DNA of 64,000 nt from NCBI GenBank assembly GCA_963775955.1, contig CAVZKT010000002.1, positions 160,474-224,473 of the forward strand. Reading direction: 5' to 3'. The notes under the pieces are model-generated. The model ran no database searches, was not told the DNA's origin, and was given only the letters and a program-made list of their open reading frames with translations. The translations under genes were made by a program, and so were the position numbers. This stretch comes from Candidatus Moraniibacteriota bacterium (GTDB lineage: Bacteria > Patescibacteriota > Minisyncoccia > Moranbacterales > UBA2206). Position 1 is the first letter of the stretch; each line of letters begins with the position of its first letter. This document shows, one piece after another, positions 1,563 through 62,930 of the stretch.

Positions 1563-1680
1563 TCTTGGTATCTCTTGCGAAATGGCAACACCTGATTCCA
1601 TTCCGAACTCAGTCGTTAAGCATTTCAGCACCGATGATATCCCCCGCTAAGCGGGGGGAAAAGTAGGCCGGTGCCAAGAA
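1563..1680 (+). rRNA. rrf: 5S rRNA
   Basis: Terminal helix cttggt...gccaag; conserved CCGAACUCAG...GUUAAGC loop; GC hairpin ccccgcuaagcgggg. Confidence 0.8.
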
Positions 1681-1755
1681 TTATGTATTTAAGAAAGGTG
1701 AAAAGGCCGAATTAAGGCTCTTTTTTATTTTTCCAAATCGTGCTAAAATACGACC

Positions 1756-2649
1756 ATGGACCCTGTTAGAGTTTTTGCTGAATTCGAAACGGGGTTGCGG
1801 ATAATTTTTAACTCTAACGGGGTGGAAAAGCGGGATAAAAAAAGAGTGTTTGTCATCGCTGTTTATGCAGTGATTTTTATAGGTGTATTTTTTTTGATTT
1901 ATCAATGGCGAAAACCGGCGCCGAATTGCTTTGATGGAAAACAAAATCAAAATGAACAGGGGGCTGACTGTGGGGGCGTTTGCGCCAAGAAATGTCCGGT
2001 GGTTGCCAAGGAGAATTTGATTGTCCGGCAAACCGGCTATGTGGAAAGCGGCATCGCCGGCAGTTATGACATTTACGCGGAAGTTGCCAATCCGAACAGT
2101 TTGGTGGGCAGTGATAGATTTAATTATAAGTTCGTTGTTAAAAATTCAACCGGTGAAACAATAGCAGAGCCAGCCGGCACCAGTTTCATCCTTCCCGCCG
2201 ACAAAAAATATATTATCGAAACTAATGCGGTGCTGAAAGATATTCCGGCGAGCGTTGAGCTTGGCGTCAGTGATCCGCAGTGGATAGAGACGAATGACGC
2301 ATATGAAAAACCGGAACTGAAGGTTGTAAGCAAGAATTACAACGAGATAACCTCCGGTGTCGGCTTCAGTGAAGCAACAGGACTTTTGAAAAATGAAAGT
2401 CCTTTCAGTTTCAGCTCCTTAAATCTGCGGATTATTCTTGAAAACAAAGATGGAAAAATAGTGGCGCTTAATTCAACCCAGATGAATACCGTCCAGGCCG
2501 GAGAAAACAGGGACTTCCGCGTCAATTGGCCGAGCAAATTTGCCGGTTCGGTTAGCAAAATGGACGTTCAAATAGAAGTAAATGTTTTTGATTCGGAAGC
2601 TTTTTTCAAAAAATATTTCAAGCCGGAAAAATTTCAACAGTATCGGTAG
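1756..2649 (+). CDS. hypothetical membrane-anchored/secreted protein (N-terminal TM helix, Cys-rich CGGVCAKKCP segment)
   Basis: 297-aa ORF; hydrophobic segment FVIAVYAVIFIGVFFLIY. No recognisable family. Confidence 0.5.
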   Translation: MDPVRVFAEFETGLRIIFNSNGVEKRDKKRVFVIAVYAVIFIGVFFLIYQWRKPAPNCFDGKQNQNEQGADCGGVCAKKCPVVAKENLIVRQTGYVESGIAGSYDIYAEVANPNSLVGSDRFNYKFVVKNSTGETIAEPAGTSFILPADKKYIIETNAVLKDIPASVELGVSDPQWIETNDAYEKPELKVVSKNYNEITSGVGFSEATGLLKNESPFSFSSLNLRIILENKDGKIVALNSTQMNTVQAGENRDFRVNWPSKFAGSVSKMDVQIEVNVFDSEAFFKKYFKPEKFQQYR

Positions 2650-2732
2650 TTAGTTATTAGTTTGTGGTTTTTAGTTTTTAGAAATTTCCGATTTTTTCAA
2701 GAACCAGGAGCTACAAGCCAAGAACTTTTATT

Positions 2733-3824
2733 ATGCTTAAAAACTTTTTAAAACTGGACTGGGTTTTGGGCGCGGCAATCGCGCTGCTTTTAGGTGTGGG
2801 AATTCTGGCTCTTTATAGCGTTTCCTTTCTTGAAAACGCTTTAGTGACAGATCATTTTTATCGCCAGTTGGCGTCTATCCTTCTGGGAATTATTCTGATG
2901 CTGATTTTTTCATTTTTTGATTACCGGGCATTGAGTCCATACAGCACAAAATTATATTTTGCGATGATTGCCATTTTGTTTTTGGTGCTGATTTTTGGCG
3001 CGACTGTGCGGGGCACGACAGGCTGGATCGGAAGCGGTAATTTTCATATTCAGCCTGTAGAGGCAGCAAAAATAATTATGATTATTTTTTTAGCCAGTTT
3101 TCTTTCCAAAAAGAAAACAAAACTTAGCGAAACCGCAAAAATTGCCGTTTCGGTACTACTTGTCTTCATTCCGGTATTTTTGATTCTCAGGCAGCCGGAT
3201 TTTGGCTCAGCGGCGGTAGTAGCGGGCATTTGGGGCGGAATGCTTTTTGTTTCTGAAATCAGTAAAAAAAATATACTTCTGCTTTTTTTGGCCATTGCCA
3301 TCGTTGCCGGAGGAAGTTATTTTTTTCTGAAGGATTATCAAAAAGAAAGACTTTATAATTTTGTAAACCCAAGCAATGATCCCCTGGGAAGCGGATATAA
3401 TGTGGCGCAGTCTATGGTAGCTGTTGGATCGGGCGGAATATTCGGCAAAGGGCTGGGCCACGGTCCTCAATCGCAGCTGAATTTTCTCCCGGAAAAACAC
3501 ACCGATTTTATTTTCGCGGCTATTGCAGAGGAGCTGGGTCTTTTAGGATCGCTTTTCGTAATTTTTCTTTTTGGCGTTCTTCTTTACAGGATAAAAAAAA
3601 CGGCGCGCTTGGCCCGCGATAATTTCGGCTATTTGCTGGCGGTCGGAGTGATGATTATGTTTTTTTTGCAAATATTGATTAATATCGGAATGAATATGGG
3701 GCTTAATCCAGTGGCTGGAGTCCCGCTGCCCCTTTTAAGCTACGGAGGAAGTTCAATCGTAGCCGTTTTAGTTGGCTTGGGCATTGTTCAAAGCGTTTAT
3801 CTGCGAGGGATAAAGAGGGGTTGA
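2733..3824 (+). CDS. SEDS-family peptidoglycan glycosyltransferase (RodA/FtsW-like; likely RodA because it is not in the dcw cluster)
   Basis: 363 aa, polytopic. Shows the GKGLGHGPQSQLNFLPEKHTDFIFAAIAEELG and PLPLLSYGGSS motifs typical of FtsW/RodA. Confidence 0.85.
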   Translation: MLKNFLKLDWVLGAAIALLLGVGILALYSVSFLENALVTDHFYRQLASILLGIILMLIFSFFDYRALSPYSTKLYFAMIAILFLVLIFGATVRGTTGWIGSGNFHIQPVEAAKIIMIIFLASFLSKKKTKLSETAKIAVSVLLVFIPVFLILRQPDFGSAAVVAGIWGGMLFVSEISKKNILLLFLAIAIVAGGSYFFLKDYQKERLYNFVNPSNDPLGSGYNVAQSMVAVGSGGIFGKGLGHGPQSQLNFLPEKHTDFIFAAIAEELGLLGSLFVIFLFGVLLYRIKKTARLARDNFGYLLAVGVMIMFFLQILINIGMNMGLNPVAGVPLPLLSYGGSSIVAVLVGLGIVQSVYLRGIKRG

Positions 3825-3939
3825 CCCCATTAGAAATTTATCGACGGCTTTATTTTTACGGACACGCGCAAGCGAAGCGGCTTCACCTTTAAATTTCGTT
3901 ATTAGTAGGTATTTTCTGAAACTTCTAACGGGGTTGACC
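3819..3939. mobile_element. Family A miniature inverted-repeat element, copy A1 (TIR GGTTGACCCCATTAGAAATTT / AAACTTCTAACGGGGTTGACC)
   Basis: Terminal inverted repeats ~20 nt. Internal conserved core cgcgcaagcgaagcggcttc shared with copy A2. The right end provides TTGACC. Confidence 0.65.
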
Positions 3940-3962
3940 AAAATATTTAACTATGATAAAAT
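3934..3962 (+). promoter_or_regulatory. sigma70-like promoter (TTGACC-17-TAAAAT) contributed by the element A1 terminus; transcript nearly leaderless for the 3971 ORF
   Basis: TTGACC 3934-3939; 17-nt spacer; TAAAAT 3957-3962; ATG at 3971. Confidence 0.5.
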
Positions 3963-3970
3963 TCTAAAAC

Positions 3971-4306
3971 ATGGCAAAAAATAAAAATGGAAACTTAGAC
4001 TTTCTGTTAAGATGCTCCTTCTGCGGAAACGGGCTTGAGCAAAATGAGCTGACGATACTGGAAAAGCAGGATCACAAAACCATACTGCACGTTTCCTGTT
4101 CACGATGCGGGACATCCTCAATTTCAATTTTGTCCAGCAATCAGGCCGGCATCATAAGTTTGGGAATGGCAACAGACTTGGACAAGGATGAGGTCAAAAG
4201 TAAATTTTCAAAAAACACAATCAGCGCCGATGAGGTTATTGATGCGCATGAATTTATTGAGAGCAAGCGGGGAAACCTGATGGAATTGATAAAAAATAAC
4301 AAGTGA
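3971..4306 (+). CDS. hypothetical zinc-ribbon protein (CxxC...CxxC)
   Basis: 111 aa; CSFCGNG ... CSRCG. Stop overlaps the next start (ATGA-like tight coupling with rplY). Confidence 0.5.
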   Translation: MAKNKNGNLDFLLRCSFCGNGLEQNELTILEKQDHKTILHVSCSRCGTSSISILSSNQAGIISLGMATDLDKDEVKSKFSKNTISADEVIDAHEFIESKRGNLMELIKNNK

Positions 4307-5022
4307 AATGCAAAACAATGGAAAAAATAAGGTTAAAGGCAAAGCTAAGGGAGGAAAGAGGAAAAAAAGTGAACAAGGGAAGGAAAAGCGGGCTCATTCC
4401 GGCGGTTACTTATGGAAAAAGCGCCGAGTCGCAAAGCCTGTGGATTGATAATTTGGATTTTAGCCGGTTGATAAAAAAACACGGAGAAAGCGTTATCATA
4501 GATTTAAGCATCGGTGAAAAGAGCGGCCATAATGTCCTGATTCATGAGATGCAGCAAAATCCGATAAGCGGAAACATTTCCCACATCGATTTTTATCAAG
4601 TGAAAATGGATGAAAAAATTGAAACTGAAGTAGAGCTGGTTTTTGTCGGTGAGTCTCCGGCTGTCAAGGAATTGGGGGGAGTTTTGGTAAAAAGTCTGGA
4701 CAAAATTGAAATTTCCTGCTTGCCGGCTGATTTGCCTTCCAGCATAGAAGTAGACATTGCCGATATTAAAACTTTTGAAGATCATATTTATGTGAAAGAC
4801 TTGAATATTCCCAAAGAGGTTGAGATTAAAGACGATCCGGAAACAGTGGTAGCTCTGGTCACTCCTCCGCGATCCGAAGAAGAACTTAGCGAGCTGGAAG
4901 AAAAAGTAGTGGAAGATGTGACGGAAGTTGAGGGAGTAGTAAAAGAAGAGCCGGTTGCCGCGGAAGAAGAAAAGTCCTCCAAAGCGGATAAACCTGTCCG
5001 GCCAGGGGAGAAAAAAGAATAG
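4303..5022 (+). CDS. rplY: 50S ribosomal protein L25 / general stress protein Ctc (bL25) with acidic C-terminal tail
   Basis: N-terminal region LKAKLREERGKKVNKGRKSGLIPAVTYGK...SQSLWID is typical of L25/Ctc. Long E-rich C-terminus. Confidence 0.8.
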   Translation: MKCKTMEKIRLKAKLREERGKKVNKGRKSGLIPAVTYGKSAESQSLWIDNLDFSRLIKKHGESVIIDLSIGEKSGHNVLIHEMQQNPISGNISHIDFYQVKMDEKIETEVELVFVGESPAVKELGGVLVKSLDKIEISCLPADLPSSIEVDIADIKTFEDHIYVKDLNIPKEVEIKDDPETVVALVTPPRSEEELSELEEKVVEDVTEVEGVVKEEPVAAEEEKSSKADKPVRPGEKKE

Positions 5023-5085
5023 CATTTCCTTAAAAAATCCTTCTTCTAAAGGATTTTTTAATCTTTTAATACGAGCCAGACTGGA

Positions 5086-6315
5086 ATGTGGTATAATATG
5101 ACCATGAGAAATGTGAAGAAAAAGGCATTGCTGATTTTTTTAGTTGCGCTATTTGCAGGCGCGAACTTTTTTAGCTATGGCAATTTTCAGGCTAAGGCTG
5201 ACACGGCGGAAGAAATTCAAAATCATCTGGATGATTTGCTGAAGAAGCAAAAAGCAGCCGAGGCTGAATTGGCAACCGAGCAGTCCAAGCTGTATAAAAA
5301 TCAGGCGCAAATCAACGCCACGCAGGCGCTGGTTAAGCAGATTAAGGATGAAATAGCCAGGCGGGAAGAAGAATTAAAAAATCTTGAAGATAGGGCCCGG
5401 CTGAACAAAACAATGCTGGCGGAATATATCAGGCAGCTTTATTATGCCAATCAGGAAAACGATCCGCTTATCAGCCTGGCTATGTTTCAAGGGAATCTAA
5501 GCGATATGGTTTTGAATTTTGATAGCACGGTTAGGATAAAAGAAAAAATAATGGACGCGCTGCAAATAATCAATGACGCAAAAACCGAAAACGAAAAAGC
5601 CAAAAATGCTCTGGCAAGCCAGCAACAGGATCGTCAGCAAGTTCTTGCGTCGCAACAGGTTCAGCAAAACCAGATAGCAGGCGAGGTGCAAGAAAAGAAG
5701 GCAAGTGTTGCGGAAATCCAGCAGAAAATTTCAAAATTAAGAAGCACACTGGCGTCTTTTTTAGGTAAATCAATAAGCATGGATGACGTTATTGAGGCAG
5801 TTAAATATGCCGATAAAAAAACGGGTGTTAGAAAAGAATTTTTATTTGCCATGCTTGATAAAGAAAGTGACCTTGGAAGATTTACGGGAGGGTGCACATA
5901 TAAAAACAGCAAAATGGGTGACTATAATGAAAAAATATTCAAAAACATTTGTGGTGAGCTTGGATATGATTATAAAAAAATGAAAGTCTCCTGTCCTCTT
6001 AGCTATGGAATCGGGGGCGCTATGGGTGTGGCGCAGTTTATGCCTAGCACTTGGGGTGATCCAGATGGAAGTCCAGTCGGATGGATCCCAAGAATTAGAT
6101 CAGCTACGGGCCACAATCCTCCAGACCCATGGAATCTAAAAGATGGAATCATGGGAATGGCATTAAAGTTGAAAGCGGCCGGAGCTGATAGCAGAAGCAA
6201 GGAACATTATGCCGCCTCGGTATATTATTGTGGCAGTAATTTGTCAAGGGCTGTGTGCCAAAATTATGCCGATTCAGTCATTAGCTGGTCAAAGGGTTAC
6301 GACGATTATTTTTAA
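5086..6315 (+). CDS. secreted coiled-coil protein with C-terminal lytic transglycosylase (MltB/SLT-like) domain
   Basis: Signal/TM at N-terminus; Q/E-rich coiled coil; C-terminal GIGGAMGVAQFMPSTW motif characteristic of MltB-type lytic murein transglycosylases. Confidence 0.6.
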   Translation: MWYNMTMRNVKKKALLIFLVALFAGANFFSYGNFQAKADTAEEIQNHLDDLLKKQKAAEAELATEQSKLYKNQAQINATQALVKQIKDEIARREEELKNLEDRARLNKTMLAEYIRQLYYANQENDPLISLAMFQGNLSDMVLNFDSTVRIKEKIMDALQIINDAKTENEKAKNALASQQQDRQQVLASQQVQQNQIAGEVQEKKASVAEIQQKISKLRSTLASFLGKSISMDDVIEAVKYADKKTGVRKEFLFAMLDKESDLGRFTGGCTYKNSKMGDYNEKIFKNICGELGYDYKKMKVSCPLSYGIGGAMGVAQFMPSTWGDPDGSPVGWIPRIRSATGHNPPDPWNLKDGIMGMALKLKAAGADSRSKEHYAASVYYCGSNLSRAVCQNYADSVISWSKGYDDYF

Positions 6316-6438
6316 TTTGACCCCGTACGAAGTTCGTTGATAATTTTATTTTTATAAACACGTGCAAGCGAAGCGGCTTCGCTTTAAATCCTCATATTAG
6401 AAATTATTTTCTGAAACTTCTAACGGGGTTGACAAAAG
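6314..6438. mobile_element. Family A miniature inverted-repeat element, copy A2
   Basis: TIRs TTGACCCCGTACGAAGTT / AACTTCTAACGGGGTTGACA. Internal core acgtgcaagcgaagcggcttcgc is near-identical to A1. Confidence 0.65.
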
Positions 6439-6456
6439 CATGAAAAGAGAGTATAA
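6428..6456 (+). promoter_or_regulatory. consensus sigma70 promoter TTGACA-17-TATAAT (partly within the element A2 terminus)
   Basis: TTGACA 6428-6433; 17-nt spacer; TATAAT 6451-6456. Near-identical to the promoter at 25228-25256. Confidence 0.7.
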
Positions 6457-6462
6457 TTAAAA

Positions 6463-6614
6463 ACAGGACGGGTGAATGCCCGTTTTTATCGTTTGAAAAA
6501 TAAAAACAAAAAAATGCGGCCGAAAGGCCTAAAAAATTAAAGGCAAGATTCCTTGCTTTATCCTTAGTGAATAAGGAAAATAATGCAAAAAACCTGATTT
6601 TTCAGGTTTTTTTG
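6463..6614 (+). ncRNA. candidate ~150-nt small RNA or riboswitch-like leader (promoter to intrinsic terminator) upstream of murA
   Basis: Starts about 7 nt after the -10. Hairpins acgggugaaugcccgu, ggccgaaaggcc (GAAA tetraloop), uccuuagugaauaagga. Ends with aaccugauuuuucagguu + U7 (6589-6614). A separate TTGAAT-18-TATACT promoter follows before murA. No ORF. Confidence 0.45.
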
Positions 6615-6668
6615 TTTTTCGCAAAAGCGGGGTTGAATTATTTTCGAGATTTAAAATATACTAGTACT

Positions 6669-7936
<1,268 letters not shown>

Positions 7937-9461: not shown

Positions 9462-10640
9462 TGGATGAACGTTCCAGATTGGCAGTTATGCGATAGGCAT
9501 TGACGTCCGTGCGTTTTTAAAACAGCGAACGGGAGTGGAGGAATATTCTTATCAAGTTATAAAACACCTGACGAATAAATTAAATAATGCTCAGGTGGTT
9601 TTGTATTTGCGCAAAAAATCAAACAGTAGATATTACGAATTACCGGAAAATTGGAAAATAAAAATAATCAAATGGCCATATTTATGGACACAAATTGGGT
9701 TGTAAGCTTGGAAATGTTTTTTCATCCAGTGGATGCTTTGTTTATTCCGGCGCATACGGTGCCGATGATTCATCCAAACAATACAATCGTGACAATCCAT
9801 GGTTTGGAATATGAATTTTGTCCCGAAGGCATATTCTTTTTGGGCGAGGCTGTATATGCGCTGGTCTATTAAAAATTCCTGCCGGTGGGCGAAGACGATC
9901 ATAGCCGTATCTAATAATACTAAAAAAGATTTGATGAGATTGTATAAAGTGCCGGAGGAGAAGATCAAGGTGATTTATGAAGGATATGACGCTGATGCGA
10001 AATCCCAAATCCCAAATCCCAAATCCAAAATAAATCCCAAATTACAAATCCAAAATTCAAAATTTTTACTATTCGTTGGTCGTCTCGAAGAGCGCAAAAA
10101 TATTGCTGGCATTATTAAAACTTTTGAAATTTTAAAAGAACAGTATAAATTACCGCATAAATTAATTTTGGCCGGATAAGTTCGGATATGGCACGAGAAA
10201 AAATAGAGGCTTCTATAGAGGATTCTAATTTCAGAAAAGATATTATTTTACCGGGATATATAACTGACGAATGAAAAATGGGAACTTTTAAAAAACGCGG
10301 ATGTATTTTTATTTCCGACATTCTATGAAGGTTTTGGCATTCCGATTTTGGAAGCGCAAAGCGTGGGCGTGCCAGTGGTGGCAGGAATAATTCTTCTATT
10401 CCGGAAGTTGTGAAACGTGTTTCTAAAACCGAGTTTTCAAATTCTCTAAAACTCGGTTTTAGAACAGTGACGAAAATTCCGCGATTTTAGTTAATCCAAT
10501 GAATGCCGAAGAGATAGCCGATGCCGCCTATAAACTGATTTCGGACAAAGCCTTGAGAGATGATATAATAAAGAAAGGCTATGAGAATGTGAAAGATTTA
10601 GTTGGGAAAAATGCGCAGAGGAAATCGCTGAAATTTTGAC
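9462..10640 (+). pseudogene. degraded family-4 glycosyltransferase paralogue (at least 5 frame disruptions/stops) containing an AAATCCC-type microsatellite
   Basis: GT4-like pieces in three frames: IGIDVRAFLKQRTGVEEY; DTNWVVSLEMFFHPVDALFIPAHTVPM; KFLLFVGRLEERKNI; EGFGIPILEAQSVGVPVVAG. Microsatellite aaatcccaaatcccaaatccaaaataaatcccaaattacaaatccaaaattcaaaa at 9999-10062. Confidence 0.6.
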
Positions 10641-10985: not shown

Positions 10986-12272
10986 ATGGATAAAAGTCAA
11001 GAGCAATTAAATAACACTAAAAATAACCCTTTAATAAAGGGAAATATTAAAGTTGCAATAGTCCATGACTTTCTGGTCCAATGTGGAGGGGCGGAGAGGG
11101 TTTTGGAGGTGCTCGCGGAAATGTTTCCGGAAGCGCCGATTTATACTTTGCTTTATGATAAAGAAAAAATGTCCGCCCAAGGCGGACCAGCCTTTGGCTG
11201 GCGCAACCGAGATATTCGCACATCTTTTTTGCAAAAATTCCCCAAATTTATCCGCAAAAGATACAAATATCTCCTGCCCCTGATGCCGACCGCGCCGGAA
11301 GTTTGGGATCTGCGTGATTTTGACCTGGTAATTTCCAGTTCCGGCGCCTGGAGCAAAGGAATAGTCACCCGCCTGAATACTATTCATATTTCCTATCTTC
11401 ACAGCCCAATGCGCTTTGTTTGGGACGCCAACAGTGAATATCTGCGCGGACAGAAAAAATGTTTTCTGGTGAACTTTTTTTCCCGGATGCTTCTCAATTA
11501 TATCCGCGTCTGGGACAAAGTAGCGGCTGACCGGCCAGATTACATTATTGCCAATTCAAAATATACGCAAAGGAGGATTGAAAAATATTATGGAAGAGAA
11601 AGTGTGGTTATTTACCCGCCCGCATCGCTACGCGAGCCCGCCTGCAACGATTGCATTTCGGGCAGGCAAGCTCGCTTGCGAAGCGTTGCGGGCGGGCCCG
11701 CCGATAGAAATGACCCGGGGTATTTTCTCGTTGTTTCCCGGCTTTCGCCTTACAAAAATGTAGATAAAATCGTGGAAGCGTTTAATAAGCTGGAATTGCC
11801 ACTGGTGGTAATCGGAGAAGGGCAACAAAAAAAATATTTGCAGAAAATCGCCGGGAAAAATATAAAAATTTTAGGCTGGCAAACGGATGAAAAAAAAGCG
11901 GAATATTATGCCAACGCCTGCGGGTTTATTTTCGCGAGCGTAGATGATTTTGGCATTACCCTGGTTGAAGCTATGGCGCACGGCTTGCCGGTGGCGGCCA
12001 TTCGCAAGGGCGGAGCATTGGAGATAGTGATCGAAGGAAAAACCGGCGAGTTTTTTGACGAGGCCACGCCGGAAGTAATTGCCGATGGAGTGAGAAGGCT
12101 AGTGGAAAATTTGGGGGACTATGACAAAGAGTTTATTGTTGGCAGGGCGAAAGAGTTTAGCAAAGAACGGTTTGTCAGAGAGTTTAGGGAATATATAAGT
12201 TCTGTAATTACAAAATCCAAAATCCAAATATCAAACAAAATCCCTGCCTGCCGGCAGGCAGGCAAAATCTAA
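10986..12272 (+). CDS. family-4 glycosyltransferase (GT4) carrying a ~90-nt GC-rich palindromic in-frame insertion and a C-terminal microsatellite/palindrome-encoded tail
   Basis: GT4 pattern: DFLVQCGGAERV...; YPPAS ... YFLVVSRLSPYKNVD ... EGFG-like FGITLVEAMAHGLPV. Insert 11625-11720 encodes LREPACNDCISGRQARLRSVAGGPADRND. The tail ITKSKIQISNKIPACRQAGKI is encoded by a microsatellite plus the palindrome cctgcctgccggcaggcagg. Confidence 0.75.
   Translation: MDKSQEQLNNTKNNPLIKGNIKVAIVHDFLVQCGGAERVLEVLAEMFPEAPIYTLLYDKEKMSAQGGPAFGWRNRDIRTSFLQKFPKFIRKRYKYLLPLMPTAPEVWDLRDFDLVISSSGAWSKGIVTRLNTIHISYLHSPMRFVWDANSEYLRGQKKCFLVNFFSRMLLNYIRVWDKVAADRPDYIIANSKYTQRRIEKYYGRESVVIYPPASLREPACNDCISGRQARLRSVAGGPADRNDPGYFLVVSRLSPYKNVDKIVEAFNKLELPLVVIGEGQQKKYLQKIAGKNIKILGWQTDEKKAEYYANACGFIFASVDDFGITLVEAMAHGLPVAAIRKGGALEIVIEGKTGEFFDEATPEVIADGVRRLVENLGDYDKEFIVGRAKEFSKERFVREFREYISSVITKSKIQISNKIPACRQAGKI
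11625..11720. repeat. GC-rich palindromic insertion inside the GT4 ORF (arms gcccgcctgcaacg / cgttgcgggcgggc; inner palindrome gcaagctcgcttgc)
   Basis: Local GC far above genome average. Dyad symmetry. In-frame (90 nt). A related palindrome lies in holB at 12549-12586. Confidence 0.6.
12243..12262. repeat. GC palindrome cctgcctgccggcaggcagg (copy 1 of 3)
   Basis: Perfect 20-nt palindrome. Identical cores at 32673-32691 and 54204-54223 (28-nt identity with the latter including the flanking gcaaaat). Confidence 0.8.
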
Positions 12273-12325
12273 AACTTTAAAAATTTTGAAGTTTAGTCAT
12301 TTGAACTTGATTTGGAATTTGAACT

Positions 12326-13268
12326 TTGAAATTTGGATTTAAAAACATTATGCACATCATCGGCCACAATAAAATCACTAACCTTTTAAACAGAAGCATT
12401 GCTCGAGGCATTGTAGGACAGGCCTATCTTTTTTCCGGTCCGGAACATCTGGGCAAGTTTACCGTGGCTTTGGATTTTGCCCAAAGATTGGCTGGCGGCA
12501 ATGTGAAAATAAATCCAGACTTAATAATTATCAGACCGGAAGGGAACCCTGCCCGCAATGCTGCGCATAGCGTTGCAGGCGGGGAAAAAAGGAATTGTTA
12601 AAAAAACTCCGCCGCGGCGGATTAAAATCGAACAAATCCGCGATCTTATACATAAGTTAAGCCTGATGGCCGCCAGCGGAAAATATAAAGTTGCCGTTAT
12701 TGACGATGCTGACCGCTTGAATAAAGCCGCGCAAAACGCGCTACTGAAAACTCTGGAAGAGCCGAATGACAAAATAGTGCTGATTTTAATTTCTCAAGAC
12801 AATAAAAAAATACTTGCGACGATTAAATCGCGCTGCCAACGGGTTAAATTCGGTCCGGTTTCCCGGGAAGAGCTTGAAAAAAATATTCCGGTTGGCGAAA
12901 AAAACAAACAAGCTTTAATTTTTTGGTCGCTGGGTCGTCCCGGATTGATGCTGAGTCTTGCGAGAGACAAATGTGAAGTTGATTTTAGAGAAGATGCGGC
13001 GGCGGAGCTGAAAATGTTGCTGAATAAAGGTTTAGCAGAAAAACTTGCTCTAGCCGAAACATTGGGAAAAGACACTCGTGAAGCGGCTAAAAAACTGAAT
13101 TTGTGGATGGTGATCCTGCGTGAAAATCTGCTGGGCAAGGGCCTTTTTGAGAAAAACCAGAAAAAATATTTAAGGATTATTGAAAATATTGAAAAAAGCC
13201 TGGAATTAATAAAAGAAACCAATTCAAATGCACGGCTTATTTTGGAAAATTTATTTTTGCATTTTTGA
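12326..13268 (+). CDS. holB: DNA polymerase III delta' subunit (HolB), frame broken at a ~38-nt GC palindrome (12549-12586)
   Basis: N-terminal part GQAYLFSGPEHLGKFTVALDFAQRL...NPDLIIIRPE; downstream frame IKIEQIRDLIHKLSLMAASGKYKVAVIDDADRLNKAAQNALLKTLEEP...SRCQRV. The junction coincides with the palindrome ccctgcccgcaa..ttgcaggcgggg. Confidence 0.7.
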
Positions 13269-32657: not shown

Positions 32658-32716
32658 CCCGGTTAAATTTTCCCTGCCTGCCGGCAGGCAGACGCCCCGG
32701 GTGGAATTTAACAGGG
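32658..32716. repeat. Family B hairpin element copy B4 (CCGGTTAAATT ... AATTTAACAGGG) containing GC palindrome cctgcctgccggcaggcag (32673-32691)
   Basis: Inverted termini plus the conserved GC palindrome. Lies between the GT2 stop and the next start. Confidence 0.6.
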
Positions 32717-32724
32717 TAAATTAA

Positions 32725-33756
32725 ATGATTAAATACTCGGTTCCATTTCTAGTATCCTTCCTGATTACGGTTTTTTTGATTGTCCTGGGAATATATCTTG
32801 GTAAAAAAATCAAATGGGACGGTCGGATTTCTTCCCGGCATATTCATCGCGCGGGAGTGAAGCGTCTGGGCGGAATGGTTATGGTAGCCGCGTTCAATCT
32901 GGCGATACTCTTAAACAAAGATCTGGTAATTACGCCGGAACTCTATGGAGTAATGGCGGCTTCGCTGGTTTTGCTTTTAGTCGGCGTATGGGATGACATC
33001 AGGGAGCTTTATTGGAAGGTCCAATTTTTCTTTCAAGTGGCCTTGGCTGTCATAGTTTTCATCATGGGGGTCAGGATTTATTTTGTTACTAACCCGCTGA
33101 CGGGCGGAATTTTGAATTTAGATTCGGGAATAGGCGTGGTTTTTTCTATAGCGCTGGTTATTTCATGGATTATTTTAATGATAAATTCAATGAATTGGCT
33201 GGACGGAATTGACGGACTTTCCGGGGGCATTACCTTTATTGGGGCTTTCACGATCTTTTTTTTAAGCCTTAGGCCTGAAGTCAATCAGCCTCCAATGGCG
33301 ATTCTTTCCATAATTGTGGCGGGCGCTGCTCTGGGTTTTCTTATTTTTAATTTCAACCCCTCGCGGATCTTGGCTGGAACCTCCGGTTCAATGTTTATGG
33401 GTTTTATTTTGGCGGTTCTGGCGATTTTTGCCGGCACAAAAATCGCGACTTCAATTATGGTTATGGCTATTCCCGTCATTGACTGCATCTGGGTTATTGG
33501 AGAAAGAATCAAAAACAAAAAATCGATTTTCAAGCCGGACAAGATGCATTTACACCACAAGCTGTTGGAATTGGGGTGGTCGCAAAAGAAGATCGCTTTC
33601 TATTTCTATGGTGTAACAAGTTTAATTGCAGTTGTGGCGTTAAATACCAGGTTTATCGGGAAAACAATAACTCTTTTGGCGGCAGCCGCGATTATGGCCG
33701 TTTTTTTGCTGATAATCAACAGAAAAATGTCCGGCAAGCCCAAAATCGCCCAATGA
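32725..33756 (+). CDS. polyprenyl-phosphate N-acetylhexosamine-1-phosphate transferase of the MraY/WecA family
   Basis: VGVWDDIREL; NSMNWLDGIDGLSGG (NxxNxxDGIDGL); FNFNPSRILAGTSGSMFMGFILAVL. Confidence 0.75.
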   Translation: MIKYSVPFLVSFLITVFLIVLGIYLGKKIKWDGRISSRHIHRAGVKRLGGMVMVAAFNLAILLNKDLVITPELYGVMAASLVLLLVGVWDDIRELYWKVQFFFQVALAVIVFIMGVRIYFVTNPLTGGILNLDSGIGVVFSIALVISWIILMINSMNWLDGIDGLSGGITFIGAFTIFFLSLRPEVNQPPMAILSIIVAGAALGFLIFNFNPSRILAGTSGSMFMGFILAVLAIFAGTKIATSIMVMAIPVIDCIWVIGERIKNKKSIFKPDKMHLHHKLLELGWSQKKIAFYFYGVTSLIAVVALNTRFIGKTITLLAAAAIMAVFLLIINRKMSGKPKIAQ

Positions 33757-34948: not shown

Positions 34949-35005
34949 TTTGCCCTGTTAAATACCGCAAAGCGGTAATCCCGAGTGCTCGGGATTATTT
35001 AATGG
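34949..35005. repeat. Family B-like hairpin element (CCCTGTTAAATA ... TTATTTAATGGGG)
   Basis: Inverted termini related to B2/B3. Internal hairpin atcccgagtgctcgggat. Confidence 0.5.
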
Positions 35006-35841
35006 GGTGAAAATTATTAATGCTTGCCCCGCACCAATTTTTGTAAAAACTTCCGTAATTAATTGTCAGAGCCGATAGGTGGCTTCGCCTTTGGGCTATG
35101 CAATAATTCATAGCTTTGTTTGAAATTGGTGCCGGGGTGAACTTTCATTGAAGCTTGTCTTTGAATTTTAGCAAAACAGGAAACCGCGTCAACTGGACAA
35201 AAACGCTTGTCTAGGGCATAATATTGGGATAAAATCTCAAATCCTAAATCTTAAATCCCAAATAAATCCCAATTTCCAAAATCCGAAATTTTTTTAATTA
35301 TCCGATAAAAAGTTTTTAATTTTGAAAATTATAATTTTGAATTTATTTAGATTTTATAATTTTGAATTTGTTATTTTTAAACCAGAAATGAAAAATTATT
35401 AGAATAAAAACACGGTTTGTTTGTAATAATTTATGAAGTTTGGTAAAAATACTACCTGTGGATAACTTTCTTGCTATTGCAAAATAAAAAAATATGGTGT
35501 ATAATTAAAAGCAAGTAAAATTATTTTATCAAAATAATTTTATGAAAAATAAAAATCAGGTCGAACAAAAAACATTAAAATACCAACTCAAGGCGAATTT
35601 CGCCAAACAGTAAAAAAAATAGAAAGGACGGTGAAACAAAATGGCAAAAAAGAAAAAGGCTGCAAAAAAGAAAAAGAAAGGTGGAAAAAAGAAAAAGAGA
35701 TAGTCTTTTGTAGCTAATCCCGGCCTGCTTCTGCTCGGCACTAATAGGGTGCAAGCACTTGGTAGGCTGGAAAATATATTATCAACTTTTGGTTTTTAAA
35801 CTGCTTTTTAGCAAAAAAGATCAATTGTTATAAAGCAAAAA

Positions 35842-38954: not shown

Positions 38955-38988
38955 TGGGCTATCGCCCAAATTGTTTTAAAAAATTTTC
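38955..38988. repeat. left 34-bp inverted repeat (aaattgttttaaaaaattttcaaatttctttttc)
   Basis: Perfect reverse complement of 42177-42210. Confidence 0.9.
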
Positions 38989-39109
38989 AAATTTCTTTTT
39001 CATTAATTAAAGAGGGGTAATAAGGTGTTTTCTCCGCTCCGCTACGAAAACGATTTATTTACAAGGGGAAAACGAATATAATAATACTAAACTAATCTTA
39101 AAAAATACT

Positions 39110-49886: not shown

Positions 49887-50151
49887 GTCAATAAGAAAAC
49901 GAGCAACAAAAAAGGGAGAGGTTAGTCAGAAACTGTGACGCCTCTCTTTTATATTAGACTTAATTTTTTAGAAATATTAAACTAGATCTGGAATATAAAC
50001 ATACTCCTTTTTCTGCACAAAAATAGTTCTAACATCCTTGACTACCCCGTGCTGATATCTAAAACGCTTGTGCAAAGCGTTTTTGTGTTTTTGGCTGTGT
50101 GCATAACTTTTAAATCTTTTTGTGGTATAATAAAAATATAATTTATAATCC

Positions 50152-50197
50152 CTGTTAAATAGGTTCCGTTTCACGGAATTTAACAGGGTTAACGGGG
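50152..50197. repeat. Family B hairpin element copy B2 (CCCTGTTAAAT ... ATTTAACAGGG)
   Basis: Perfect 11-12-nt inverted termini around a short hairpin. Followed by a TAACGGGG (family A-like) motif. Confidence 0.6.
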
Positions 50198-52322: not shown

Positions 52323-53039
52323 GTGGTAAGATTAAATCGCATGCGCTTTGAAATAATTACAATTTTTCCAGAAATTTTTAATTCCTATTTTTCGGAATCA
52401 ATAATTAAGCGCGCCCAAAAAGCGGGGCTGATTGACGTTGGAATTAATGATTTACGGGATTTTACAACTGACAAGCACAAAACGGTGGACGACACGCCAT
52501 ATGGCGGCGGAGCGGGAATGGTGCTCAAAATTGAACCCATCTGGCGATGTGTCCAATTTATAAAATCCAAAATCCAAAATACCAAATTCCAAATAAATCC
52601 AAAATCCAAAACTCAAAATTCAAAAACGCGGATTATTTTATTTTCCGCCAAAGGAAAAAAGTACACGCAGAAAGATGCCAAGAGACTGGCTAAATATGAT
52701 AATTTAATTTTAATTTGTGGGCGCTACGAAGGTGTAGACGAACGGGTGGCAAAATATATTGCCGATGAAGAAATTTCCATCGGCGATTTTGTGCTGACTG
52801 GCGGAGAAATTCCGGCGATGATCTTGGTTGATTCAATATCCAGGTTAATTCCGGGGGTTTTGGGGAATATTGAAAGCGCCAAAGAAGAATCGCATAATAT
52901 TGAAGGTTATTTAGAGTTTCCCCAATACACAAAGCCGGAGATTTATAATAAATGGAAAGTTCCGAAAATTTTGCTTTCCGGAAACCATGAAGAAATAGAA
53001 AGATGGCGGAAAAAACATTCTAAAATTTTAGGAGCTTAG
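52323..53039 (+). CDS. trmD: tRNA (guanine37-N1)-methyltransferase TrmD with an in-frame microsatellite-encoded insertion
   Basis: [13 protein letters not shown]...[16 protein letters not shown] ... insert [21 protein letters not shown] ... [12 protein letters not shown]...GDFVLTGGE. Confidence 0.85.
52558..52625. repeat. AAATCCAAA-type microsatellite inside trmD (in frame)
   Basis: aaatccaaaatccaaaataccaaattccaaataaatccaaaatccaaaactcaaaattcaaaa. Confidence 0.8.
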
Positions 53040-54165: not shown

Positions 54166-54181
54166 TCAAAAAAATTCACCC

Positions 54182-54333
54182 TGTTAAATAAATTTTGCTA
54201 GAACCTGCCTGCCGGCAGGCAGGCAAAATTAAGATTTGAGAAAAAAACAGGAGAATTAAAAAATAAATTTTAATATTAAGAAAAATAAGTTGTTTCTATA
54301 AAACATAGACTTAAATCTTATTTAACAGGGTAA
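54182..54333. mobile_element. Family B element copy B3 (13-nt perfect TIR CCCTGTTAAATAA) containing GC palindrome cctgcctgccggcaggcagg (54204-54223)
   Basis: ccctgttaaataa ... ttatttaacaggg. Sits between ftsW and the murG ATG. Confidence 0.7.
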
Positions 54334-62437: not shown

Positions 62438-62466
62438 TGATTTAAAAAATAAAAACAAAAATATTT

Positions 62467-62575
62467 ACCCCGTTAGAATAAAGATTTGTTTTTTGATGGG
62501 GTTAGGTTCTAATAATTTATATCATTTTATACTATTGTTTTTTAAACAAGTAATAGTACAAAATTCTAACGGGGT
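62467..62575. mobile_element. Family A miniature inverted-repeat element, copy A4 (ACCCCGTTAGAAT ... ATTCTAACGGGGT)
   Basis: 13-nt inverted termini. Internal ggggttaggttctaa submotif. Overlaps the annotated start of the next ORF. Confidence 0.65.
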
Positions 62576-62930
62576 GAACACGCCCGTAAAAACCTGGATC
62601 GGGGTAACTATAATAATCGCCGCGGCGGTTATGGCTGGAATGTCTATTTGGTACTGCCAAAAGAATTACGTAATTAATTACGTAAATATTGAAACGCCGC
62701 AAATAAATAAAAAAGCTTGCACTGAAGAAGCGAAAGTTTGTCCCGACGGCAGCGCCGTCGGCCGCACCGGGCCGAATTGCGAATTCGCGCCTTGCTTCGG
62801 CGAAGGAAAGGATATGGTCGGCAATGACCGCGATGAGCACGGCTGCATTGGATCCGCCGGATATTCCTGGTGCGAAGAAAAACAAAAGTGCCTGCGGACT
62901 TGGGAAGAATCCTGCGGGACAGAAGAATGA
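62493..62930 (+). CDS. hypothetical small Cys-rich secreted protein (start uncertain, probably downstream of element A4)
   Basis: TM/signal IGVTIIIAAAVMAGMSIWY; 8 cysteines in the C-terminal 80 aa. Confidence 0.45.
   Translation: MMGLGSNNLYHFILLFFKQVIVQNSNGVNTPVKTWIGVTIIIAAAVMAGMSIWYCQKNYVINYVNIETPQINKKACTEEAKVCPDGSAVGRTGPNCEFAPCFGEGKDMVGNDRDEHGCIGSAGYSWCEEKQKCLRTWEESCGTEE

Follow-up and report, generated by a model that had tools for sequence, protein, structure and literature searches.

The 64-kb stretch of a Candidatus Moraniibacteriota genome analysed here (contig CAVZKT010000002.1, positions 160,474 to 224,473; the whole stretch is referred to as the window) contains five copies of a short inverted-repeat element, tentatively named family A and numbered A0 to A4. 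They lie just downstream of a 5S rRNA gene (A0), between rodA and a zinc-ribbon open reading frame (ORF) (A1), upstream of murA (A2), at the start of ricT (A3), and at the start of a gene encoding a Cys-rich membrane protein (A4). Our verdict is that family A represents a new group of miniature inverted-repeat elements with an unusually wide distribution, and not a dispenser of promoters. Its copies are very probably non-autonomous DNA transposons (MITEs, for miniature inverted-repeat transposable elements) that insert with a 4-bp target duplication and regenerate the signals that they hit, the promoters beside A1 and A2 being such targets.

Anatomy and insertion sites of family A in the window

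All five copies are bounded by CCCC...GGGG and have the ends CCCCGTTAGA...TCTAACGGGG, which usually pair over 13 bp and enclose a variable interior (Table 1; coordinates of the A copies are window positions on the + strand throughout). The preliminary description of this DNA had reported four copies (3819-3939, 6314-6438, 44471-44575, and 62467-62575), all of which are confirmed in the sequence, but it had overlooked the fifth, A0 (1761-1822). The elements measure 62-110 bp in the window and 92-122 bp among the public copies discussed below, with no transposase gene inside. The arms ACCCCGTTAGAA and TTCTAACGGGGT are exact in A3 and A4; the right arm is also exact in A1 and A2, and the left arm has one mismatch in A1 and two in A2. 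With up to two mismatches allowed, the 12-mer arm occurs 12 times in the window, versus 4.3 +/- 2.4 times in shuffled sequences (none of 100 shuffles reached 12). The internal core previously noted in both A1 and A2 was found again (GCAAGCGAAGCGGCTTC), and about 75% of their interiors is shared, including a small hairpin (GCGAAGCGGCTTCGC). Single-strand folding compared with shuffles gave z scores of about -4.8 to -5.0 for four of the five elements, A1 being the exception (z -1.4). In Rfam, no match to the elements was found at gathering scores across the whole window, or at E <= 1 within 1690-6700.

Table 1. Positions of family A copies, adjacent promoter-like sequences, and sister-family copies in the window
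Feature	Positions	Strand	Left 4-mer / element ends / right 4-mer	Remarks
A0	1757-1826 (element 1761-1822)	+	TGGA / CCCTGTTAGAG...CTCTAACGGGG / TGGA	40-nt loop
A1	3821-3937 (element 3825-3933)	+	TTGA / CCCCATTAGAA...TTCTAACGGGG / TTGA	
A2	6317-6432 (element 6321-6428)	+	TTGA / CCCCGTACGAA...TTCTAACGGGG / TTGA	
A3	44469-44578 (element 44473-44574)	+	TTAA / CCCCGTTAGAAATTTTAC...GTAAAATTTCTAACGGGG / TGAA	
A4	62464-62578 (element 62468-62574)	+	TTTA / CCCCGTTAGAAT...ATTCTAACGGGG / TGAA	
-10-like TAAAAT	1744-1749	+		6 nt before ATG 1756; conserved in relatives as TAGAAT or TAAAAT
Promoter-like TTGACC-17-TAAAAT	3934-3962	+		upstream of the zinc-ribbon ORF (ATG 3971)
Promoter-like TTGACA-17-TATAAT, then terminator-like hairpin	6429-6486	+		promoter 6429-6457; hairpin 6465-6486
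Sister-family copy	32658-32716			arm match
Sister-family copy	34953-35007			arm match
Sister-family copy	50150-50188			arm match
Sister-family copy	54179-54330			arm match

Directly outside the CCCC/GGGG boundaries lies a 4-nt direct repeat, which is perfect in three of the five window copies (A0, A1, and A2). The terminal inverted repeats drawn earlier for A1 and A2 are real as far as their inverted arms are concerned, but they took in the adjoining TTGA; this tetranucleotide stands on both sides of the two copies as a direct and not an inverted repeat, and is therefore duplicated target. Syntenic contigs of related Moranbacteria (designated by L numbers, as are the public loci below) were obtained via their RodA and RicT homologues and then aligned with the window. 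At the A0, A1, and A3 sites, the alignments show clean gaps that comprise the element plus one 4-mer, and the empty site retains a single 4-mer. The A0 site is empty in L120, L121, and L122 (ATGGAAAAG), where it reads TA(G/A)AAT-N6-ATGGAAAA or equivalent, with the single TGGA within ATG GAA. The A1 site is empty in the same three contigs, each with a single TTGA, and reads ...AAATATTTGACTCAAAGCATTATTTATGATAAACT...ATG in L120 (RodA 86% identical) and ...GCGCTTGACTAGCGTATTTGGGCGTGATAAAATTTTAAAACATG in L121 (RodA 88% identical). The A3 site is empty in L123 and L124 (ATGGGAAAGATT), both reading AAAAAATATGGGAAAGATTTT, and for A4 no empty site was obtained among the relatives. Target-site duplications, which the preliminary description had suggested looking for, are present in window and public copies alike, and its view of the copies as miniature inverted-repeat mobile elements is upheld by the 4-bp duplications, the empty orthologous sites, and at least 119 further public loci.

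It had further been proposed that the right terminus of the element carries an outward-reading -35 box (GGGGTTGAC), making promoters wherever a -10 box fits, that A1 had in this way created a leaderless promoter for the zinc-ribbon gene, and that the family hands out ready-made promoters. The -35/-10 pairs after A1 and A2 do exist, with good -10 boxes at a 17-nt spacing, and are the best promoter-like matches within 1650-6750; TTGAC also follows GGGG in about ten public copies, and other MITEs, e.g., Correia elements, do carry promoters (PMC10969869). However, only the GGGG of GGGGTTGAC comes from the element, TTGA being the second target copy and C the flank, and TTGA is also found on the left side of the same copies. 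The left TTGA of A1 holds the rodA TGA stop (3822-3824) and the right TTGA forms the first four bases of the -35 box; in L120 and L121, the single TTGA contains the rodA stop codon. These two relatives, which lack A1, already have TTGACT-17-TAAACT/TAAAAT before the same zinc-ribbon gene, and in L121 the spacing from the -10 box to the ATG is the same as in the window (where it is 8 nt to ATG 3971, and not 9 nt as previously given). The A1-adjacent promoter therefore predates A1, as does the near-leaderless arrangement of the zinc-ribbon gene, and the element contributes GGGG only. The promoter next to A2 must also predate its neighbor, because TTGA flanks A2 on both sides; the preliminary description had A2 drive a candidate sRNA upstream of murA, which may be transcribed from this promoter. 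Further, the right ends of A0, A3, and A4 (GGGGTGGA or GGGGTGAA) are not TTGAC, and the duplications elsewhere take many sequences. Of the 11 TTGA/TCAA duplications in other genomes, 10 read TTGAC, for the most part TTGACA, so that -35 boxes are a recurrent insertion site and not cargo. The promoters beside A1 and A2 are thus targets that were hit; promoter dispensing is refuted for A1 and unnecessary for A2, and an element-borne -35 box is very unlikely as the general explanation. For the regulatory reading of such loci, this means that an adjacent -35 box can seem to be borne by the element though it is duplicated target.

Start codons were hit by A0, A3, and A4. The left TGGA of A0 lies in the original ATG GAA (ATG 1756), and the right TGGA together with the terminal G of the element makes GTG GAA (GTG 1822); element and duplication add up to 66 nt, which are in frame and open (22 extra codons). 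The -10-like TAAAAT in front of them belongs to the promoter that this gene already had before A0 arrived. A3 was inserted after the ATGG of the ricT start (ATG 44465), and the present start, GTG 44574, consists of the last G of A3 and the TG that begins the right 4-mer. Homologues of RicT have 258 aa and start with M-x-K-I-L-V (the second residue being variable), and the window RicT read from the right-arm GTG has 257 aa. The simplest history would be that an ancestral ATG GTT AAG suffered duplication of its TTAA, and that a later change of TTAA to TGAA created the GTG. In A4, GTG 62574 starts the Cys-rich membrane protein, whose homologues start with MNQQ, MNKK, or MDKK, followed by a membrane helix; these starts fit a putative original site A/TGAA/C (slashes mark the boundaries of the 4-mer), i.e., ATG AAC, the left copy of which would since have decayed. 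The earlier statement that A3 and A4 abut start codons was thus correct, in that the insertions hit the original start and the GTG is the G of the element plus the duplicated TG.

Public gene calls at two of these sites absorb element sequence: a 297-aa product (1756-2649) starts at the ATG before A0, and a 144-aa product (P0241; 62493-62930) starts inside A4. Comparison with homologues places the true starts at 1822 for the A0 gene and at 62574 for the A4 gene. Elements of this kind thus distort the annotation of very small genomes, as the two products illustrate.

A2 has a counterpart in the distant relative L122, where it occupies the identical position and shows the odd left arm again. The RodA of L122 is only 71% identical to that of the window, and five of six genes compared make L122 the more distant relative, the exception being a 409-aa protein. 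Between the window and L122, the arms, core, and flanking promoter of A2 are 100% conserved, whereas the spacers are about 40% identical by eye, and the promoter and terminator hairpin right after A2 (6429-6486) are conserved along with it. A2 is missing, with the whole 310-nt segment (to 6632) between the 409-aa gene and the murA promoter, in four closer relatives (L120, L121, L126, and L127). Given this distribution, either A2 is old and was lost once later on, or it was exchanged laterally. A metagenome scan for relatives of the 409-aa protein returned only three loci, none with A2. The part of the segment beyond the element (window 6429-6632, L122 5540-5880) forms a conserved unit of TTGACA-17-TATAAT, the hairpin at 6465-6486, and further hairpins.

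Distribution and site pattern in public genomes

We scanned the GTDB species genomes with the pattern CCCCGTTAGA-N72-102-TCTAACGGGG and found at least 119 loci, from which the figures on public copies in this text are derived. They are distributed over Patescibacteria (many classes), Omnitrophota, Planctomycetota (including Brocadia), Desulfobacterota, Nitrospirota, Spirochaetia, Stahlbacteria, and Edwardsbacteria. Several copies may occur in one public genome (two in L071; L006, L011 with two copies, and L051 all come from one metagenome-assembled genome, MAG), and the window itself holds five per 64 kb. The same pattern had no match in 2.9 million viral contigs. Although descriptions of Patescibacteria usually present them as poor in mobile DNA, the family A copies show recent or ongoing DNA mobility in this group. 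Ends that are common to Patescibacteria, Omnitrophota, Planctomycetota, and Desulfobacterota point to a widely exchanged putative transposase.

A perfect 4-nt direct repeat is present just outside CCCC/GGGG in 64 of the 121 listed elements with readable flanks, and in one register only. The consensus of the public duplications is TNNA (TAAA, TTTA, TGAA, TTGA, TCAA, TTCA, and others), preceded by a purine and followed by a pyrimidine. Coding regions are avoided: once the element and one repeat had been removed in silico, long open frames were found at the sites of only 5 of 50 elements with a duplication, versus 64% of random TNNA sites, and the two of these five that were inspected (L016 and L029) look spurious. 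Five apparent insertions in long ORFs were inspected (two with and three without a duplication), and in all five the junction lies upstream of the real start. Start codons are overlapped by 11 of 60 elements, versus 2.7% of random TNNA sites. Nine of these 11 overlaps are in exact register, with the duplication at ORF bases 2-5 (A/TGAA or A/TGGA), and duplications of the TGAA/TGGA type are at start codons in 8 of 13 cases, versus 8.6% of the same tetranucleotides outside ORFs.

In-frame read-through was rejected as the reason why start-codon insertions persist, as only four of ten are in frame and one is open. For the two remaining frames, a stop is supplied by the right arm, either a TAA located 8 nt ahead of the new GTG or a TGA overlapping it; we speculate that these stops would permit termination-reinitiation. 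About 15% of the copies can be read through, all at the extreme 5' end. Among them, three Omnitrophota prepilin genes carry an in-frame element in the leader peptide, where the TTTA duplication forms TTT AC codons and the element end ...ACG GGG rebuilds the G/FT cleavage motif. The three elements (L071 6334-6425 and 6918-7021, and L016 900-1012) add 32-36 in-frame codons to a type IV prepilin leader and rebuild a G/FTLIEL site. Readable elements are also contained in the twin-arginine (TAT) signal peptides of L096 and L112.

The MAG with several copies (DX4.bin27) has a further arrangement, in which inverted repeats of about 320 nt (L011 2046-2369 and 4832-5155), each with a family A element, flank a gene encoding a 686-aa secreted protein. 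The same repeat is also found on two other contigs of this MAG (L006 and L051).

Mechanism, rival explanations, and relation to known elements

If family A consists of MITEs, a transposase supplied in trans would recognise the CCCCGTTAGA ends and move the element by cut-and-paste or copy movement. As the duplications suggest, the target would be cut with a 4-nt stagger at R/TNNA/Y, giving a 4-bp duplication on each side. Because a target copy is kept on both sides, the duplication and the terminal G leave a working signal beside the gene in each class of site: the TTGA of TTGACA stays TTGACA on the gene side, and an overlapping stop codon, as in rodA, on the other; a start of the form A/TGAA or A/TGGA becomes G+TGAA, i.e., a GTG start; and the prepilin cleavage site G/TTTA/C becomes ...GGG TTT AC. 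In compact genomes nearly every insertion would be harmful, and those that survive would be the ones that regenerate what they interrupt. We thus regard selection as the probable cause of the site pattern; alternatively, promoters and gene starts may be actively targeted. Start codons, -35 boxes, and peptidase sites can all be restored by a 4-bp duplication combined with a terminal base that is fixed, which would explain the persistence of insertions in genomes with almost no spare DNA.

Several observations weigh against this interpretation. No autonomous element or transposase with family A ends was found, either in the window itself or in the 869 kb of DNA that surround the public copies. 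A Pfam scan of 30 window ORFs showed no transposase or integrase, and tblastn with the transposase of ISEcp1, an element discussed below, gave no match near any copy. A long element with the same ends was searched for in 119 loci and only chance pairs were found (two candidates, L112 2997-4545 and L090, were inspected and dismissed as such, the former holding ordinary genes), and an all-versus-all comparison of the ORFs neighboring public copies revealed no recurrent protein family. A literature search for the arms brought up nothing relevant, and one for MITEs in candidate phyla turned up no papers. Besides the missing parent, a perfect duplication is absent in 57 of the 121 elements, and the interiors are much more diverse than is usual among MITEs derived from one insertion sequence. 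Pairing extends over exactly 10+3 bp in 52 of 122 elements, and positions 11-13 vary between copies yet stay complementary, a pattern not explained by simple transposase binding. The identical arms and core of A2 beside diverged spacers suggest a possible constraint at the host level. Finally, in four public copies, none of them with a duplication, the arms surround an entire tRNA gene.

Instead of being merely mobile, the hairpins may have been taken over by their hosts as RNA or DNA regulatory structures (in stability, translation coupling, or termination), with arms under host selection after a mobile origin, which we consider possible but rather unlikely. Such a role would be consistent with the strong predicted folding of four of the five copies, with arms that stay paired though positions 11-13 vary, with the conservation of A2 (arms, core, and promoter) in L122, with the location of A0, A3, and A4 between a promoter or upstream gene and a start codon, and with the right-arm stop that in frames +1 and +2 precedes the new GTG by 8 nt or overlaps it. 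Close relatives, however, manage without A0, A1, and A3, the interiors are not conserved, the left-arm mismatches of A1 and A2 break pairing and are uncompensated, and an A-C mismatch on the + strand of A1 versus a G-U pair in A0 favors neither strand. A non-mobile alternative would have the inverted 12-mers act as pairs of operators, bound by a regulator that loops over about 100 bp. Operators are typically located at -35 boxes and start codons, and the 12-mers do overlap such sites, but the spacing of the arms ranges from about 20 to 140 nt, their variation is complementary within a copy, the sites have 4-nt direct repeats and empty counterparts, and the copies stand beside unrelated genes in unrelated phyla; we rejected this idea on the variable spacing and the duplications, and regard it as extremely improbable.

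The tRNA-enclosing copies bear on a third alternative. In L073 (1104-1287), L099 (about 5020-5250), L075 (1513-1326, minus strand), and L048 (431-590), family A arms surround a complete tRNA (Ala-CGC, Val-TAC, or Val-GAC), and in the first three of these loci the tRNA-carrying element splits the anticodon loop of a second tRNA whose cloverleaf is otherwise perfect. Such a locus may represent one tRNA nested in another, an arrangement like that of an intron, or a gene that is dead. If elements were removed from RNA in an intron-like manner, by cleavage at the base of the 13-bp stem and ligation, insertions in start codons and anticodon loops would be silent. The three anticodon-loop cases fit this proposal, as do three compensatory double changes in the outer acceptor stem of L073 versus L099 and the tolerance of start-codon insertions even with a broken frame. 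On the other hand, silent splicing does not predict the strong exclusion from coding regions, the cut positions implied by L073 and L075 disagree, the outer anticodon stem of L099 is imperfect, A3 apparently needed a compensating change of TTAA to TGAA for its GTG, and no bacterial enzyme for such splicing was identified in this analysis; we therefore consider RNA removal highly improbable. A broader and more speculative proposal is that CCCC...GGGG hairpins form a cross-phylum superfamily that actively homes to -35 boxes, start codons, and leader junctions by means of an unrecognised piggyBac/IS1380-like enzyme, and/or is processed at the RNA level at its 13-bp stem. We think this unlikely; if true, the RNA-level processing would account both for the tRNA-within-tRNA genes seen in some Parcubacteria and for the tolerated start-codon insertions.

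Returning to the reading as MITEs, the copies are short, have terminal inverted repeats and a duplication, occur in filled and empty sites, and are present in multiple copies; family A thus has every structural feature of a MITE except a known parent, as an autonomous element with the same ends was found neither in the window nor in the 119 public loci. Bacterial MITEs, such as the Correia elements (CREE) of Neisseria, ERIC, RUP, Nezha, and Chunjie, often lie a short distance upstream of a gene, and in some cases extend into the end of one (PMC10969869, PMC3184786). Family A is similar to them in its short, non-coding sequence, terminal inverted repeats, duplication, stable RNA hairpin, many copies, and filled/empty polymorphism (PMC10969869, PMC3184786), but differs in the lack of a known cognate insertion sequence, in its highly variable interiors, and in its occurrence in many phyla and not one genus. 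It is not identical to Correia, RUP, ERIC, or Chunjie. Correia and RUP have a TA duplication, compared with TNNA in family A, and different ends; Correia elements also have a 26-bp inverted repeat and internal promoters of their own (PMC10969869), whereas the promoter neighboring family A is a pre-existing target and, at A1, older than the element. The 21-bp inverted repeats and 9-bp duplications of Chunjie are unlike those of family A, and ERIC was likewise rejected on its different ends and duplication. REP/REPIN sequences moved by RAYT were dismissed as well, since the family A arms are not self-palindromic, have no GTAG, and are accompanied by a 4-bp duplication.

The attC sites of integrons have the order YYYAAC...GTTRRR, with R'' (RYYYAAC) on the 5' side and R' (GTTRRRY) on the 3' side, and occur in cassette arrays next to intI. 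Family A resembles attC in that both form imperfect hairpins, 60-140 nt in length, whose top varies and whose base has a conserved GTTRRR / YYYAAC pair close to it. Identity was rejected, however, as the motif order is reversed (GTTAGA...TCTAAC); family A further has an extra outer CCCC/GGGG clamp and 4-bp duplications, and neither cassette arrays nor an integrase are found near its copies. Like the Rickettsia palindromic elements (RPEs) and other repeats that have become fused to genes in frame, family A is tolerated in reading frames (A0, the prepilin leaders, and the TAT signal peptides), and gene callers annotate element sequence as protein (PMC3184786). In contrast to RPEs, only the roughly 15% of copies mentioned above are readable through, at the extreme 5' end and not inside domains, and the 4-bp duplications are clear.

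The ends of family A also resemble those of insertion sequences of the IS1380 family, such as ISEcp1, and of eukaryotic piggyBac elements, which begin with CC(C) and have TAGA soon after (family A CCCCGTTAGAAAT, ISEcp1 CCTAGATTCTACGT). As read in pC15-1a, ISEcp1 appears as TCATA/CCTAGATTCTACGT...ACGTGGAATTTAGG, and also as TCATA/CCTAGATTC; it makes 5-bp duplications. The piggyBac end is TTAA/CCCTAGAAAGATA, and its terminal repeat has 13 bp, the length computed for family A. All have short T...A flanks (TCATA at ISEcp1, TTAA at piggyBac, and TNNA in family A), so that both the CC-initial ends and the 4-5 bp T...A duplication of this group are found in family A. The resemblance is limited to a few terminal bases, though, and no such transposase was found near any copy. 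Membership in piggyBac proper, with its strict TTAA, was rejected, as no perfect TTAA duplication is present among the public copies and TTAA occurs only as the left copy of A3. IS1380 transposases have been used as the prokaryotic outgroup of piggyBac (PMC10813416). On these terminal bases, a relation of family A to IS1380/piggyBac would be a lead and not a membership.

Sister families and other repeats

Besides family A, the window contains four copies of a sister family with the arms CCCYGTTAAAT / ATTTAACRGGG (Table 1), for which no clean 4-nt duplication was seen. Hairpins of this family stand 4-25 nt before the starts of a murG-like gene (54334) and of the genes at 32725 and 50212. A sister-family copy also precedes the rpsB ATG by 8-9 nt in L123 (786-836) and L124 (244-293), and none is present at the corresponding window position (42880-42915). 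Related families of B-type and C-type are likewise polymorphic, with copies in L123 and L124 at places that are empty in the window. Another hairpin family, the third, is characterised by the ends CCCCCACACCAA...TTGGTGTGGGGG and was observed in L122 (about 5645-5757) and L123 (594-658). Its L122 copy carries the A1/A2 core GCGAAGCGGCTTCGC in reversed orientation, and internal modules are thus shared between families with different ends.

Other repeats of the window include a GC-rich palindrome, CCTGCCTGCCGGCAGGCAGG, which occurs three times (12243-12268, 32673-32698, and 54204-54229), two of these occurrences being in sister-family hairpin loops. An inverted repeat of 34 nt, which is perfect (38968-39001 and 42177-42210), flanks about 3.2 kb of low-GC DNA (about 35%) that includes a gene encoding a D12-class DNA adenine methyltransferase (39891-40982); this segment may be inserted or invertible. 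Intergenic low-complexity runs of the AAATCC type and their complements are found at 9986-10062, 35232-35294, 52549-52625, 12311-12341, and 47378-47438.

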